From the NCBI RefSeq assembly GCF_963921235.1, contig NW_026948143.1:124001-169845 (forward strand): DNA of 45,845 bases, in the 5' to 3' direction. The translations under genes were made by a program, and so were the position numbers. This document shows, piece after piece, positions 2,768-10,200 of the stretch. The stretch is from Mobula hypostoma (Eukaryota). Every line of letters begins with the position of its first letter. The stretch's first letter is position 1. The notes below the pieces were generated by a model that worked only from the letters and a program-made list of their open reading frames with translations, searched no databases and was not told where the DNA came from.

Positions 2768-2809
2768 TGTGGGGTGTCTGCATGTGTGAGGGACAGTATG
2801 GGGTGTCTG
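2768..2809 (+). repeat. Degenerate left edge of the 30-bp satellite, cut off from the main array by the LTR element
   Basis: 'tgtggggtgtctgcatgtgtgagggacagtatggggtgtctg' is ~1.4 units resembling the consensus and shares 'acagtatgg' with the first unit right of the element (7236-7244). Confidence 0.75.
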
Positions 2810-3022
2810 TGTGGTAGACCACATATATAAGTTGTAACTGGGTTACCTGTCTGGACAGGCCCCTCTGCTGACTGCTCCTGTGGCTCCTCCCACAGACCGC
2901 TGAATAAAGGCGATTGTGCCACTGCTCCTCCCTCAGTCCAGACGTTGGTCCATTTACTGTTAATAAAAGCCTTTCAGTATTTACTCTACTTCCAGTCTTT
3001 TGGAGTAATTGATGGTGCATTA
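2810..3022 (+). repeat. 5' LTR (213 bp)
   Basis: Starts TGTGGTAGACC and ends GTGCATTA (the 3' LTR ends GTGCATCA). Aligns end to end with 6981-7211 but lacks 18 nt (ggacagacactcagcatg). TATA-like TGAATAAA at 2901-2908; AATAAA at 2962-2967. Confidence 0.93.
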
Positions 3023-3023
3023 A

Positions 3024-3038
3024 TTTTATTAACAGTAA
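3024..3038 (+). promoter_or_regulatory. Non-tRNA primer-binding-site position, complementary to the element's own LTR
   Basis: TTTTATTAACAGTAA starts 1 nt after the LTR end and is the exact reverse complement of TTACTGTTAATAAAA at 2954-2968. No TGG-initiated tRNA PBS is present. Confidence 0.75.
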
Positions 3039-3047
3039 TTTTAAAGC

Positions 3048-6000
3048 ATTGAGCACGTCCTGAGACCCGACAAGCTAGACCTCAACCCGCAAATACCTGA
3101 AGCCGGAAATGCTTTCGAACTCTGGCTGGCCTGCTTCGAATCATACCTGGAGGAGATTGAAGTGACTGAGTCCACCACGAAGCGCCGAGTTCTCCTCTCC
3201 AGGGTCAGTCCACGGGTCTACTCAATGATTAGAGACTAGCGGAGCTATGACAGTGCGATGAGCGCCCTCAAAAGACAATACCTGCGGCCGGTAAACACCG
3301 TCTATGCGCAACATCGCTTAGCAACGCGGCAGCAGCAGCCCGGAGAGTTGAGCGCTGAGTTCGTCCAGGCCCTACAGATACTTGTGCGGGCCTGCGATTG
3401 CCGGGGGCTAACGGCTGACGGCTGAAGAGCACTCGGAGCTCCTAGTAAGAGACACCTTCGTCACGGGGACCAGGTCAGTGTATGTGCGCCAGCGGCTGCT
3501 GGAACACGCCGATCGTACCTTACGTTTGGCGATCGAGCTGGCTGACATGCTGGAGGCCGCTCTGCACAACTCTGACCCTTTCCAGGCACGCGATCTCCCG
3601 ACGGCCTTGTGGACGCCGCAGACCCCGCAACCCGCCTCTGAATCGACCTCGGTTGCTGCCAGTTACGGGTCCGCGAAGTGCTACTTCTGCGGACTCGAGA
3701 AGCACCCCTGGAAACGCTGCCCAGCCCGAGAAGCTAGCTGCTCCAGCTGCGGAAAGAAGAGCCACTTCGCCAAGGCCTGTAAGTCAAAACCGCGAGTGGG
3801 ATCGAGCAGCACTGCGTGCGAGACGTGGGGGTCGCCATCTTCCCTGCACACTGCCACCACGTGCGAGACCTGGGGGTGGCCATCTTGGTCGGCGCCACCT
3901 CGGACCGCCTACGACCCACGGGTGCTCACGAGGCACCCCACCGCACCGGACCAAGTCAGCGACTCAACTCTAGCCTCCGTGACCCTCAACCAAAGCGCCC
4001 CCCACCAGCTTGGAAGGTCAATGATGGACATCCTGGTGGAGGGGCCCAGGACAAGCTGTCTGTTTGACACAGACAGCGCGGAGAGTTTTATCCACCCGGA
4101 CACGGTGCAGCATTGCAGACTTGTGATACGGCCGGTAAGTCAGAGGGTCGCCATGGCTTCCGGGTCATATGCAAAAGACATCTGGGAGGGTTGTGTAGCG
4201 ACGCTAATGGTGCAGGGCACAGAATATCAAGACTTTACGTTACTGGTTATGCCTCAACTGTGTGCCCCTGTGCTATTGGGGTCGACTTCCAGAGCCACCT
4301 GAAAAGCGTGACAATGAAGTATGATGGGCCCCTCCCACCAATCACTGTTGGAAATCCTCAGTTTTGTAGGGATACGTCACATACCCTGCTACTGACCACA
4401 CACACATACCGACCCGCACATCCCACCCAACACCATGCCAACAGCCGCACTACCAACGCCACTTGCGGCCTCTCCACCCTCAGGATCCCTCCCCCACCGC
4501 TGTTCACCAGCCTGACCCCCGACTGTAAACCTGTGGCAACTAAAAGCAGGAGGTACAGCGCGGGGGACAGAGCCTTCATTAAGTCGGAGGTGCAGTGGCT
4601 GCTCAAGGAGGGGGTCACTGAGACAAGCACAAGTCCTTGGAGGACGCAGGTGGTCATTGTTCGGAACGGGGAGAAGAATAGGATGGTCGTGGACTATAGC
4701 CAGACCATCAATAGGTTCACACAGCTCGACGCGTACCCTCTACCCGGCATCGCGGATATCGTCAATCAGATAGCACAGTACAAGGTGTACTCGACCATAG
4801 ACCTAAAATCCGCTTACCATCAGCTCCCCATCCGCCGGGAGGACCGCCCTTACACTGCCTTCGAGGCGGACGGCAGGCTTTATCAATTCCTGCGTGTCCC
4901 CTTCGGTGTCACGAATGGTGTATCTGTCTTCCAGAGGGCAATGGACCGGATGGTGGACCAGTGCCAACTGAAGGCCACGTTCCCATATCTGGATAACATC
5001 ATCATCTGCGGTCACGACCGGCAGGATCACACAACTACCTCTAAAAATTTCTCCAAGCGGCCAAAGCTTTCAATCTCACCTATAACAAGGACAAGTGTGT
5101 ATTCGGAACCACCTGATCTGCTATCCTTGGGTGTGTCGTGGAGAACGGAGTCATTGGCCCTGACCCCGACCGTATGCACCCCCTGTTGGAACTCCCTCTT
5201 CCCAACACCCTCAGAGCCCTCAAAAGGTGCCTGGGCTTCTTTTCATATTACGCCCAATGGGTCTCTAACTACGCAGACAAGGCCCGCCCCCTGGTCAAGT
5301 CCACCACATTCCCCCTCTCTGCCGAGGCCTGCGCGGCCTTCAGCCGCATTAAAAGGGGACATTGCCAAAGCAGCAATGCATGCGGTGGATGAGGCCATTC
5401 CCTTCCAAGTAGAGAGGACGCCTCCGACTTTGCGCTGGCTGCTACCCTCAACCAGGCAGGAAGACCAGTGGCATTCTTCTCCCATACCCTTCAAGGCCCT
5501 GAAATTCGGCACTCTGCGGTAGAGAAAGAGGCCCAGGCCATAGTGGAAGCTATTAGGAACTGGAGGCACTATCTCGCCGGCAAAAAGTTTCACCCTGCTA
5601 ACTGACCAGCGCTCAGTCGCATTCATGTTTAGTAACCAACAGCGGAGCAAAATCAAAAATGATAAAATTCTGAGGTGGAGAATCGAACTCTCCACCTACA
5701 ACTGTGACATCATGTACAGGCCTGGGAAGCTCAACGAGCCCTCTGATGCCCTATCCCGGAGAGCGTGCGCCAGCGTGCAGATTGACTGGATATACGCCCT
5801 ACATGTAGATCTTTGCCACCCGGGGTCGCCCGGCTTTTCCACTTCGTGAAAGCCCGGAACCTGCCTTACTCCCTTGAGGAGATCAGGACGATGACCAGGG
5901 ACTGCCAAGTCTGCACAGAGTGCAAACCGCACTTCTACCGACCTGAAAAGGCACCACTCATCAAGGCCACCCGCCCCTTTGAGCAACTGAGTGTTGACTT

Positions 6001-6928
6001 TAAGGGCCCCCTTCCCTCCACCGACCACAGTGTGTACTTTCTTAATGTTATCGTCGAGTACTCGCGGTTCCCCTTCGCCATCCCCTGCCCCGATACCACT
6101 ACCACATCAGTCATAAAAGCCCTGCGCAAGCTCTTCACTCTGTTCGGATACCCATGCTATATCCACAGTGACAGAGGGTCCTCGTTTATGAGTGACGAGC
6201 TGCGCCAATACCTGCTGGCTAGGAATATTGTAACTAATAGGACCACAAGCTATAATCTCCGGGGGAATGGACAGGGGGAGGAGGAGAATTCCATGGTGTG
6301 GGAGGCTACACTCTTAGCCCTCAGGTCAAAGGGACTGCCGGTCTCCCACTGGCAGGAGGTCCTTCCCGAGGCACTCCACTCCATCCGCTCCCTGTTATGC
6401 ACAGCCACCAATGCCACCCCTCATGAGCGACTCTTTTCTTTTCCCAGAAAGTCGACCACTGGGACCACCCTACCATCTTGGCTGACGTCCCCGGGGCCAG
6501 TGCTGCTCCGGAAACATGCGAGGAGCAATAAATACTCCCTGATAGTTGAGAGGGTTCACTTACTTCATGCGAACCCCCAGTACGCCTACGTGGTTTTACC
6601 TGATGGGCGGGAGGACACGGTCTCCATCCGCGACCTGGCGCCCACAGGAGATCCGGGCCCGTACCCTGAACACTCCGTGGTGACTATTGACCCCGTACCC
6701 ACCAATGTATGCACCTACGAGACACCGTGCACCCCAAACCCTATACAGACACCACACGACACTCCCATACCGGGCGCGACGCACACGCACGAGGGATTAC
6801 CGACGCCGAACGTGCTGGCACCTGAAGTCAGGCCGGAGCCAGCACAACCGCCATCGCCGGAGCTATGTGGATCACAGCGACAGACTCGACCGCCTGATAG
6901 ACTTAACCTGCAAATATACTTCTTGTAA
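3048..6928 (+). pseudogene. gag-pol: Disrupted gag-pol polyprotein (Gag with 2 CCHC knuckles, aspartic protease, RT, RNase H, integrase)
   Basis: The frame opens at ATT 3048 (probably mutated ATG; EHVLRPDKLDLNP). Knuckles CYFCGLEKHPWKRC and CSSCGKKSHFAKAC; protease LFDTDS (4066); RT SPW..RMVVDY..DAYPLP..IDLKSAYHQ..PFG..YLDN; RNase H DAS..EKEAQAIV..TDQ; integrase H-H-C-C, SVDFKGP, HSDRGSSF, GNGQGE. Lesions: TAG 3237, 7-bp duplication 3411-3424, TGA 5114, frameshifts near 4280, 5030, 5355, 5415, 5585 and 5830. Confidence 0.93.
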
Positions 6929-6964
6929 ATATTGTCAGTCACTTCACCCCGCGGGATTCTTTTT

Positions 6965-6980
6965 AAAAAGGAGGGGTGAA
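6965..6980 (+). promoter_or_regulatory. Polypurine tract (plus-strand primer)
   Basis: AAAAAGGAGGGGTGAA directly abuts the TG start of the 3' LTR. Confidence 0.88.
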
Positions 6981-7211
6981 TGTGGTAAACCATGTATATA
7001 TGTTGCAACCAGGTTAACTGTCTGGACACACACCTCTGCTGAATGCCCCTGTGGCTCCTCCCACAGACCCCTGAATAAAGGCGATTGTGTCATGATCCTC
7101 CCACAATCCAGGACAGACACTCAGCATGGACGTTGATCCATTTACTGTGAATAAAAGCCTTTCAGAATTTACTCTACTACTACTCTTTTGATGGCAATTG
7201 ATAGTGCATCA
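6981..7211 (+). repeat. 3' LTR (231 bp)
   Basis: TGTGGTAAACC...GTGCATCA, preceded by the PPT and followed by the TSD GTCTG. About 86% identical to the 5' LTR by manual alignment. Confidence 0.93.
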
Positions 7212-10200
7212 GTCTGTGTGTGTATGTGTGTGGGAACAGTATGGAATATCTGTGTGTGAGGGAGTGCTGTGGGATGTCTGTGCGTGTGAGGGAGTGCTGT
7301 GAGATGTCTCTGCATGTGAGGGACTGCTATGGGATGTCTGTGTTTGTGAGGGAGTACTGTGGGATGTCTGTGTGTGTGAGGGAGTGCTGTGGGATGTCTG
7401 TGTGTGTGAGGGAGTGCTGTGAGATGTCTCTGTAAGTGAGGGAGTGCTGTGAGATGTCTGTGTGTGTGAGGGAGTGCTGTGGGATGTCTGTGTGTGTGAG
7501 GGAGTGCTGTGGGATGTCTGTGTGTGTGAGGGAGTGCTGTGAGATGTCTCTGTGTGTGAGGGAGTGCTGTGGGATGTCTGTGTGTGTGAGGGAGTGCTGT
7601 GAGATGTCTCTGTATGTGAGGGAGTGCTGTGAGATGTCTGTGTGTGTGAGGGAGTGCTGTGGGATGTCTGTGTGTGTGAGGGAGTGCTGTGGGATGTCTG
7701 TGTGTGTGAGGGAGTGCTGTGAGATGTCTCTGTATGTGAGGGAGTGCTGTGGGATGTCTGTGTGTGTGAGGGAGTGCTGTGGGATGTCTGTGTGTGTGAG
7801 GGAGTGCTGTGTGATGTCTCTGTATGTGAGGGAGTGCTGTGGGATGTCTGTGTGTGTGAGGGAGTGCTGTGGGATGTCTGTGTGTGTGAGGGAGTGCTGT
7901 GGGATGTCTCTGCATGTGAGGGACTGCTTTGGGATGTCTCTGTGTGTGAGGGAGTGCTGTGGGATGTCTGTGTGTGTGAGGGAGTGCTGTGAGATGTCTG
8001 TGCATGTGAGGGACTGCTGTGGGATGTCTCTGTGTGTGAGGGAGTGCTGTGGGATGTCTGTGTGTGTGAGGGAGTGCTGTGAGATGCCTGTGCATGTGAG
8101 GGAGTGTTGTGGGATGTCTGTGTGTGTGAGGGAGTGCTGTGCGGTGTCTCTGTGTTTGAGGGAGTGCTCTGGGGTGTCTGTGTGTGAGGGAGTGCTGTGG
8201 GATGTCTGTGTGTGTGAGGGAGTGCTGTGGGATACCTGTGTGTTCGAGGGAGTGCTGTGGGATGTCTCTGTATGTGAGGGAGTACTGTGCGGTGTCTCTG
8301 TGTTTGAGGGAGTGCTGTGAGATGTCTGTGTGTGTGAAGGAGTGCTGTGGGATGTCTGTCTGTGTGAGGGAGTGCTGTGAGAAGTCTGTGTGTGTGAGGG
8401 AGTGCTGTGGGATGTCTGTGTGTGTGAGGGAGTGCTGTGGGATGTCTGTGTGTGTGAGGGAGTGCTGTGCACTGTTTGTGTGTGTGAGGGAGAGCTGTGA
8501 GATGTCTGTGCATGTGAGGGAGTGTTGTGGGATGTCTGTGTGTGTCAGGGAGTGTTGTGGGATGTCTGTGTGTGTGAGGGAGTGCTGTGTGGTGTCTCTG
8601 TGTTTGAGGGAGTGCTCTGGGGTGTCTGTGTGTGAGGGAGTGCTGTGGGATGTCTCTGTGTGTGAGGGAGTGCTCTGGGATGTGTGTGTGTGTGAGGGAG
8701 TGCTGTGAGATGTCTGTGCGTGTGAGGGAGTGTTGTGGGATGTCTGTGTGTGTGAGGGAGTGCTGTGGGACGTCTGTGTGTGTGAGGGAGTGCTGTAGGA
8801 TGTCTGTGTGTGTGAGGGAGTGCTGTGGACTGTTTGTGTGTGTGAGGGAGTGCTGTGAGATGTCTGTGCATGTGAGGGACTGTTGTGGGATGTCTGTGTG
8901 TGTCAGGGAGTGTTGTGGGATGTCTGTGCGTGTGAGGGAGTGCTGTGGGATGTCTGTGTGTGTGAGGGAGTGCTGTGCGGTGTCTCTGTGTTTGAGGGAG
9001 TGCTGTGGGATGTCTGTGTGTGTGAGGGAGTGCTGTGGGATGTCTGTGTGTGTGAGGGAGTGCTGTGAGATGTCTCTGTATGTGAGGGAGTGCTGTGGGA
9101 TGTCTGTGTGTGTGAGGGAGTGCTGTGAGATGTCTGTGCATGTGAGGGAGTGCTGTGGGATGTCTCTGTGTGTGAGGGAGTGCTGTGGGATGTGTGTGTG
9201 TGTGAGGGAGTGCTGTGAGATGTCTGTGCATGTGAGGGAGTGTTGTGGGATGTCTGTGTGTGTGAGGGAGTGCTGTGCGGTGTCTCTGTGTTTGAGGGAG
9301 TGCTCTGGGGTGTCTGTGTGTGAGGGAGTGCTGTGAGATGTCTGTGTGTGTGAGGGAGTGTTGTGAGATGTCTGTGCGTGTGAGGGAGTGTTGTGGGATG
9401 TCTGTGCGTGTGAGGGAGTGCTGTGGGATGTCTGTGTGTGTATGTGTGTGGGAACAGTATGGAATATCTGTGTGTGAGGGAGTGCTGTGGGATGTCTGTG
9501 CGTGTGAGGGAGTGCTGTGAGATGTCTCTGTAAGTGAGGGAGTGCTGTGAGATGTCTGTGTGTGTGAGGGAGTGCTGTGGGATGTCTGTGTGTGTGAGGG
9601 AGTGCTGTGAGATGTCTCTGTATGTGAGGGAGTGCTGTGGGATGTCTCTGTAGGTGAGGGAGTGCTGTGAGATGTCTGTGTTTGTGAGGGAGTACTGTGG
9701 GATGTCTGTGCGTGTGAGGGAGTGCTGTGGGATGTCTCTGCATGTGAGGGACTGCTATGGGATGTCTGTGTTTGTGAGGGAGTACTGTGGGATGTCTGTG
9801 CGTGTGAGGGAGTGCTGTGGGATGTCTGTGCGTGTGAGGGAGTGCTGTGGACTGTTTGTGTGTGTGAGGGAGTGCTGTGGGATGTCTGTGTGTGTGAGGG
9901 AGTGCTGTGAGATGTCTCTGTAAGTGAGGGAGTGCTGTGAGATGTCTGTGTGTGTGAGGGAGTGCTGTGGGATGTCTGTGTGTGTGAGGGAGTGCTGTGG
10001 GATGACTGTGTGTGTGAGGGAGTGCTGTGAGATGTCTCTGTATGTGAGGGAGTGCTGTGGGATGTCTCTGTAGGTGAGGGAGTGCTGTGAGATGTCTCTG
10101 TATGTGAGGGAGTGCTGTGAGATGTCTGTGTATGTGAGGGAGTGCTGTGGGATGTCTCTGTATGTGAGGGAGTGCTGTGGGATGTCTGTGTGTTTCAGGG

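Follow-up and report, generated by a model that had tools for sequence, protein, structure and literature searches.

A Ty3/gypsy Family of Mobula hypostoma That Probably Primes Reverse Transcription From Its Own LTR

Introduction

Self-priming of reverse transcription is, as a mechanism, not new, and it is already known from the LTR retrotransposons Tf1, Tf2, and Tj1. In Tf1, the initial 11 bases anneal to the primer-binding site, or PBS, and RNase H cleaves between bases 11 and 12 (PMC7175516); the same model is also set out in PMC5341516. For Tj1, self-priming was proposed on the ground that its primer site is complementary to the 5′ LTR (PMC4600332), and similar proposals have been made for the Tf1/sushi elements of yeast and vertebrates, for Tcn1, and for TAR copia (PMC6317226). 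Hairpin priming is credited to "some chromoviruses" only in PMC3601003. So far, the Tf1/sushi-type chromoviruses and a few plant and fungal lineages have been regarded as the specialists in self-priming.

Our starting point was an earlier note on a stretch of 45,845 nucleotides (hereafter, the window) from the genome of Mobula hypostoma, an animal genome of 3.48 Gb. The note had proposed that a gypsy element in the window carries a PBS complementary to its own LTR and might prime itself without a tRNA. That proposal is supported by comparison, namely by conservation of the pairing, by covariation, and by its recurrence with unrelated sequences in distant relatives. We consider it likely, on the strength of these sequence comparisons, that the element is a decayed Ty3/gypsy copy whose family and wider lineage prime minus-strand synthesis by themselves, and not by means of a tRNA.

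The closest described systems are similar to the window element in some respects and different in others. As in Tf1 and Tf2 of Schizosaccharomyces pombe, there is no tRNA site, a site adjacent to U5 can pair with the element's own R, and the resulting hairpin encloses U5; in Tf1, the primer is produced by an RNase H cut where the duplex ends (PMC7175516 and PMC5341516). However, the 11 nt used by Tf1 are the very first bases of its RNA, whereas the arms are 15 nt long in the window family and 11–19 nt in its relatives. In addition, and unlike Tf1 and Tf2, the arm of the window element holds a putative poly(A) signal, and the element, whose host is an animal, carries two CCHC knuckles and no chromodomain. 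The vertebrate Tf1/sushi elements (sushi-ichi; Butler et al., 2001, as cited in PMC6317226) are likewise vertebrate LTR retrotransposons for which self-priming was proposed, but these are chromoviruses, whereas no chromodomain was found in the window element or in the relatives scanned. For Tj1 of Schizosaccharomyces japonicus, Tcn1-like chromoviruses, and TAR copia of plants, self-priming was again deduced from complementarity between the site and the 5′ LTR (PMC4600332; PMC6317226); in contrast to the window family, these belong to other lineages with fungal or plant hosts, and the available portions of the two sources report no poly(A) signal within the primer.

Results

Structure and genomic setting of the element

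The window contains a 4.4-kb LTR element that spans positions 2810–7211 on the plus strand. It is a Ty3/gypsy (Metaviridae) element by the order of the domains between its LTRs, which, as judged from Pfam matches on the plus strand, is gag, protease, reverse transcriptase (RT), RNase H, and integrase (IN); the order is the same in intact relatives. The parts of the element are as follows.

2805–2809, plus strand: possible target-site duplication GTCTG, left copy (weak)
2810–3022, plus strand: 5′ LTR, 213 bp, TG...CATTA
3048–3790, plus strand: gag, decayed, with two CCHC knuckles; start codon ATT here, ATG in other copies
3679–3720 and 3739–3780, plus strand: the CCHC knuckles of gag
4027–4284, plus strand: aspartic protease domain (PF13975, PF13650)
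4674–5054, plus strand: reverse transcriptase domain, motif C reading YLDN
5544–5849, plus strand: RNase H remnant (PF17917, below the Pfam cut-off)
5969–6253, plus strand: integrase core, with a C-terminal tail to 6928 that lacks a chromodomain
6965–6976, plus strand: polypurine tract AAAAAGGAGGGG, 4 nt 5′ of the 3′ LTR
6981–7211, plus strand: 3′ LTR, 231 bp
7212–7216, plus strand: possible target-site duplication GTCTG, right copy (weak)

The two LTRs are ~80% alike and differ by a 20-nt indel, and each shows 85–91% likeness to other copies of the family. Relative to most of these copies, the 5′ LTR of the window element has a 20-nt deletion near position 2940. The gag frame is interrupted by stops and a frame shift, and at its start (3048–3050), where the window reads ATT, position 3050 is changed from T to G in all aligned contigs of sequencing runs, which gives the gag ATG. 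Given the stops and shifts in its frames, the window element is an old, dead copy.

A satellite array with a 30-bp unit (~1137 units, 84% match) begins right 3′ of the 3′ LTR and extends over 34 kb (7251–41376), while ~1.5 satellite-like units are found at 2768–2809, directly 5′ of the 5′ LTR. With satellite sequence on both flanks, the element seems to have been inserted at the edge of the array. The GTCTG duplication is weak evidence, since the word recurs in every flanking satellite unit. The upstream flank also contains a pair of inverted repeats of 90 nt that are 83% alike (2585–2672 and 859–946) and unrelated to the element.

Lineage of the element

The earlier note had described two CCHC knuckles and no chromodomain, from which it concluded that the element does not resemble Tf1/sushi. 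Both features were found again in the window element, and the conclusion holds beyond it: the chromodomain (PF00385) is absent from the IN frame of the window copy, from all 10 of the 10 intact relatives scanned, and from the domain lists that had been precomputed for the best 120 relatives. The closest proteins are from elasmobranchs (Hypanus at 61%, followed by Scyliorhinus, Mobula, and Narcine), and the hosts of the relatives include elasmobranchs, a nematode, insects, a mussel, a tunicate, and an anemone. Motif C of the RT (window 4980–4995) reads Y-[LMIV]-D-N, and not Y-x-D-D, in 11 of 13 aligned members of the lineage, intact ones from several phyla among them.

Provisionally, the element looks like a member of the Mag lineage, similar to SURL and the C-clade; the name was arrived at by comparison with published descriptions. 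The assignment is based upon element size, the short LTRs, the host range, and the LTR end motif of the relatives (PMC3601003, PMC6238403, PMC8220671, and PMC4131045). In these sources, the mean LTR of Mag C elements is given as 174 nt (PMC3601003), the length of a Mag element in a frog as 4000 bp (PMC4131045), and the LTR end motifs of the C-clade as TGTNATRT ... AYANAACA (Table 3 of PMC3601003). The LTRs of the relatives measure 102–290 bp. The Mag C-clade (SURL of sea urchins; Jule of platyfish is in the Mag lineage) is like the window family in that it is metazoan-wide, including vertebrates, has elements of ~4 kb, and has short LTRs. However, when the 3′ LTR ends were compared with AYANAACA by eye, three relatives matched at 8/8 (L087) or 7/8 (L078, L061) positions, whereas the window family's own LTR end fits the motif at 5/8 positions only.

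A site complementary to the LTR directly follows the 5′ LTR

The sequence on either side of the 5′ LTR end comprises the following features.

2954–2968, plus strand: LTR arm and candidate self-primer, TTACTGTTAATAAAA; the proposed cut would leave a 3′-OH after 2968
2962–2967, plus strand: AATAAA within the arm, putative poly(A) signal
2969–3022, plus strand: hairpin loop of 54 nt (the rest of R, and U5), with inner helices including 2981–2987 / 3002–3008
3023, plus strand: single spacer base, A, between the LTR and the primer-binding site
3024–3038, plus strand: primer-binding site TTTTATTAACAGTAA, exact reverse complement of 2954–2968

The two observations on which the earlier note was built are thereby borne out: the PBS is a 15/15 reverse complement of LTR positions 2954–2968, and it lies 1 nt after the 5′ LTR, as the LTR limits of 2810–3022 leave A3023 as the only spacer base. 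A search with TTTTATTAACAGTAA that allowed up to two mismatches found three sites in the window, which are the arm, the PBS itself, and 7142–7156 on the minus strand, in the 3′ LTR (one mismatch); the 15-mer match was seen in 0 of 100 shuffles. The mismatch in the arm of the 3′ LTR is a T to G change at the eighth base, which would mismatch the PBS and which, considering the age of the copy, most likely arose after insertion.

When folded as RNA, positions 2950–3042 (93 nt) form one long hairpin closed by the 15-bp stem, with an energy of −25.1 kcal/mol (z −5.5); none of 200 shuffles was as good. The additional pairing of TTACTC with GAGTAA within the loop, which the earlier note had suggested, is largely retained in this minimum-energy fold, where five of its six pairs are present. 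The same 15-bp stem appeared in the minimum-energy fold of all eight of the eight other family copies that were folded. RNAalifold, when run on the gapped family alignment, gave no useful consensus, and single folds and pair counts were used instead.

The whole leader of the window element has room for 1 spacer base, the site of 15 nt, and another 9 bases, a length that is set by the position of the gag ATG in other copies, where the window reads ATT. In the window family, the gag ATG is found ~10 nt 3′ of the site, and in relatives it is 0–25 nt away. No TGG-type tRNA site is present in the 25 nt between the LTR and the gag start of the window element, and the leader is so short that another primer site would not fit. 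A search of the PBS against small RNAs, which the earlier note had suggested and which we ran on Rfam, returned no match for the site. The stems of retroviral leaders provide a further comparison. The retroviral U5-IR and U5-leader stems and the poly(A) hairpin of HIV-1 aid initiation or hide the 5′ poly(A) signal, but such stems flank a tRNA site, whereas in the window element the pairing involves the site itself.

Conservation and covariation of the stem within the family

A family search with the LTR plus leader as query gave 1990 first-look candidates, of which 40 were scored, yielding 30 loci at 78–100% identity; the copies used for pair counting were picked by overall likeness only. Among the 29 copies other than that of the window, 13 retain 15/15 pairs and a further 8 retain 14/15, and 370 Watson–Crick and 4 G–U pairs were counted in the 405 cells of this set. 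In a set of 57 distinct copies, 787 of 825 cells pair (780 Watson–Crick and 7 G–U), as compared with 212–303 Watson–Crick cells when the partner was slid by 1–3 columns as a control.

Covariation was assessed with a pattern in which the two central positions were left free on both arms while the other 13 positions were fixed, and the covariation described here for the family is limited to these two of the 15 pairs. The pattern had 188 matches and its reversed control had none. Among the 100 matches listed of the 188, both free positions are Watson–Crick paired in 73, 7 have wobble pairs only, and 20 are mismatched. The 73 comprise five Watson–Crick variants (TT/AA in 32, CT/AG in 19, CG/CG in 19, CA/TG in 2, and TG/CA in 1), and the wobble and mismatch classes hold the expected intermediates between them (TT/AG, CT/AA, CT/CG, CG/TG, and CG/CA). 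By comparison, 10,000 shuffles gave a mean of 25.3 and a maximum of 45, with none at 73, a control that overstates independence because the copies are related to each other. Six of the 100 listed matches turned out to be junctions of an LTR with an inverted LTR and not of an LTR with a leader; when these are subtracted, 68 Watson–Crick, 6 wobble, and 20 mismatched cases are left out of 94. The earlier note had named covariation of the 15-bp stem as a test of its proposal, and the pairing has indeed been kept while its sequence changed.

Contigs of four sequencing runs (X1, X3, X7, and X8) from four organisms cover 2810–3400, that is, the LTR and the start of gag, at 80–99% likeness. Since the contigs come from four organisms, the family is common to several species.

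The stem recurs with unrelated sequences in distant relatives

A profile made from the RT frame and 12 relatives identified 481 confirmed relatives in metagenome contigs, of which 80 loci were fetched, with RT identities of 32–61%. Direct repeats flank the RT in 24 of these loci, and 18 were usable as LTR pairs. The repeats of L073 and L096 are assembly overlaps inside gag, and those of L062, L065, L066, and L097 are cut by contig ends; all six were left out of the LTR-based count. In 16 of the 18 usable loci, an exact reverse complement of an LTR segment, 9–19 nt in length, was found 0–2 nt after the LTR end, the complementary segment itself being located 49–91 nt before that end, and 0 of 300 control windows per locus were as good. 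In the remaining two loci, the stem appears once the LTR limits are corrected.

A second scan, which is independent of LTRs, covered in 42 loci an 800-nt interval whose expected position was taken from the RT match. It revealed a perfect stem of 11–19 nt with a loop of 36–66 nt in 28 of the 42, compared with 1 of 93 coding windows that had a perfect stem of at least 11 nt. Allowing one mismatch added two more loci (L089 and L076, with 12/13 stems). A perfect stem of at least 11 nt was not found in 14 of the 42 relatives, some of which are decayed or misplaced. In a quick RT tree, stem-bearing loci are found on every main branch, and most of the stemless loci are close relatives of stem-bearing ones.

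The stem-bearing families have ~17 unrelated arm sequences, and double changes are seen within close family pairs (L061 vs. L066, L068 vs. L072, and L113 vs. L124). From family to family the sequence of the site varies, and the LTR arm varies with it. In these families, the site opens with TTTA and follows immediately upon an LTR end of the type ...ACA plus A. Among 18 families (that of the window counted), the last bases of the LTR arm are TAAA in 15 and the canonical AATAAA or ATTAAA in 10, often followed by GCC or ACC, and three families (L102, L111, and L118) have the stem without any TAAA in the arm. These comparisons identify the window family as a putative self-primer, and probably as one of a whole lineage of such elements.

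One distant family (L115, at 8518–8673, and L116) carries a TGG-type site, TGGCGACGGGCCTG, which is complementary at 13 of 14 positions to a sequence that resembles a tRNA 3′ end, CAGGGCCGTCGCCA, located 128 nt upstream. This relative may be primed by a tRNA, or it may prime itself with a sequence that imitates the end of a tRNA.

Discussion

A model for self-priming

Tf1-like self-priming in the window family is well supported by sequence comparison, since the pairing is conserved, covaries within the family, and recurs with unrelated arms in relatives, and since there is no tRNA-type site. In the model that we propose, the 15-nt PBS that follows U5 would pair, in the genomic RNA, with 15 nt of R whose 3′ end is AAUAAA(A), and this pairing would close a hairpin of 85 nt. 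An RNase H-type activity would then cut the R stretch at its 3′ end and provide a 3′-OH primer, which reverse transcriptase would extend through 55 nt back to the cut (3023 to 2969), and the short strong-stop DNA so produced would be transferred to the copy of R at the 3′ end of the RNA. The first strand transfer needs R to continue beyond 2969, and a poly(A) signal located at the 3′ end of the arm would provide just that. The pairing with the PBS would also hide the promoter-proximal poly(A) signal, whereas the 3′ copy, which has no partner nearby, would stay open.

Where the RNA starts

The model leaves a choice as to where the RNA begins relative to the arm. Three start candidates can be read from the sequence: a TATATA run near the start of the LTR, the combination of TGAATAAAGG and CTCAGTCC, and the Inr-like CCATTT at 2950–2955. 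The second of these includes a further copy of the AATAAA motif.

2903–2908, plus strand: first AATAAA, in TGAATAAAGG (2901–2910), candidate TATA-like box, conserved in family copies

The simplest reading is that the RNA would begin at the arm or close to it, on the pattern of Tf1. It is favored by the Tf1 precedent itself, by the difficulty that a long tail on the primer would create in the second transfer, and by two distant families (L061 and L067) in which the LTR upstream of the arm is only 94–100 nt long, leaving little room for a start far upstream.

Less probable, in our view, is the geometry put forward in the earlier note, in which the primer is internal and arises by internal cleavage, or in which the 3′ copy of R does the priming. 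Transcription would then start upstream of the arm, perhaps by 20–40 nt, for example at A2935 in CTCAGTCC, and a capped 5′ fragment of 34–54 nt would serve as primer, with its last 15 nt paired to the site. The TATA-like TGAATAAAGG and the Inr-like CTCAGTCC (A2935) are 32 nt apart, which is the canonical spacing, and both motifs are conserved in family copies; the stretch that leads from them to the arm is the most indel-rich of the LTR, unlike a core promoter. Family copies can also form a small hairpin just 5′ of the arm (ATGGAC-GTTG-GTCCAT; window ~2941–2953), which is shortened in the window by the 20-nt deletion and whose closing inner pair is C–G or T–A among copies, with C/A intermediates. 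This one covarying pair would fit an internal primer, but the RNA carries U3 at its 3′ end as well, so that a hairpin upstream of the arm is uninformative on the start. The arrangement requires that TGAATAAAGG be read as a TATA box, and an AT-rich box upstream of the arm is absent in 5 of 6 distant families checked; the 94–100 nt of LTR mentioned above also count against it. Furthermore, if the retroviral scheme applies, plus-strand strong-stop DNA would include a copy of any long unpaired tail, which would impede the second transfer.

No RNA runs are listed as containing the stretch, and the contigs of the four runs mentioned above, which we guess to be RNA, cover the LTR and gag without starts, ends, or loose poly(A) ends. 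A search for poly(A)-tailed processed copies, by which the poly(A) site might be mapped, gave 0 matches, and none of the metagenome contigs has a poly(A) end or terminal repeats of the R type.

We also encountered recurrent palindromes, which consist of a full LTR, the spacer, and the 15-nt site, followed by the LTR portion upstream of the arm in reverse complement. Long forms extend over 66 to >115 nt (L173, L161, L143, L187, L215, L217, and L218) and short ones over 14–24 nt (L035, L171, and L213). Such a product is expected if plus-strand strong-stop DNA folds back on the complement of arm and site and copies itself. The short inverted junctions were considered as a map of the RNA 5′ end and rejected, as they stop at −14, −18, and −24 and not at a single point, which also speaks against one fixed internal start.

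Structure, small RNAs, and chance

The overlap of the arm with a putative poly(A) signal raises another explanation for the stem, which is that it acts as RNA structure only, in poly(A) masking, packaging, or dimerisation, while priming depends on another, unrecognised primer. We regard this as unlikely. In the window, the AATAAA of the arm is followed by CA at 2993–2994 and then by a GU-rich stretch, and a canonical AATAAA or ATTAAA closes the arm in 10 of 18 families, with TAAA doing so in 15 of 18, in keeping with masking. In HIV-1, a hairpin masks the 5′ poly(A) signal, so that there is a known example of such a function, and pairing kept for masking or packaging would yield the same comparative signal as pairing kept for priming. 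However, the second arm is always exactly at the place of the primer site, 0–2 nt after the LTR; the leader is too short for another site and a TGG-type site is absent; and L102, L111, and L118 keep the stem even though their arms contain no TAAA.

Even less probable, to the point that we give it very little weight, is the idea that the partner of the site is a host tRNA, a fragment of one, or a different small RNA, and that its match to the LTR is incidental. The precedent would be elements that use internal parts of tRNAs, such as the copia lineages with half-tRNA sites (described in PMC6317226), but the site of the window family does not start with TGG and has no Rfam match, and between families it varies together with the LTR arm. 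A chance inverted repeat, for which the AT-rich arms might be taken, is refuted by the controls (0 of 100 shuffles for the 15-mer, a z of −5.5 for the fold, and stems in 1 of 93 coding windows vs. 28 of 42 loci).

Implications

Self-priming is thus our preferred explanation, and it can be extended to a joint reading of all the observations, which we offer tentatively. A whole, very widespread metazoan lineage similar to the Mag C-clade, reaching from cnidarians and molluscs to sharks, may prime itself; the 3′ end of its primer would be the poly(A) signal, and one and the same helix would both produce the primer and shut off the promoter-proximal poly(A) site. An internal piece of the leader, and not the first bases of the RNA, may serve as primer, and the palindromes could be remnants left when plus-strand strong-stop DNA folded back on this complementarity.

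Full-text searches found no literature that links Mag, SURL, or Jule to self-priming; their scope did not extend to the founding papers on SURL, Jule, and Anopheles Mag or to Butler et al. (2001), so a printed description may exist.

If the Mag lineage does prime itself, tRNA-independent priming would be common in animals. Annotation pipelines that depend on a tRNA site would then miss or misplace such elements, and host defences that act through matches between tRNA fragments and primer sites would not touch them. Finally, the overlap between primer and poly(A) signal would provide a testable link between the initiation of reverse transcription and the choice of the RNA 3′ end.
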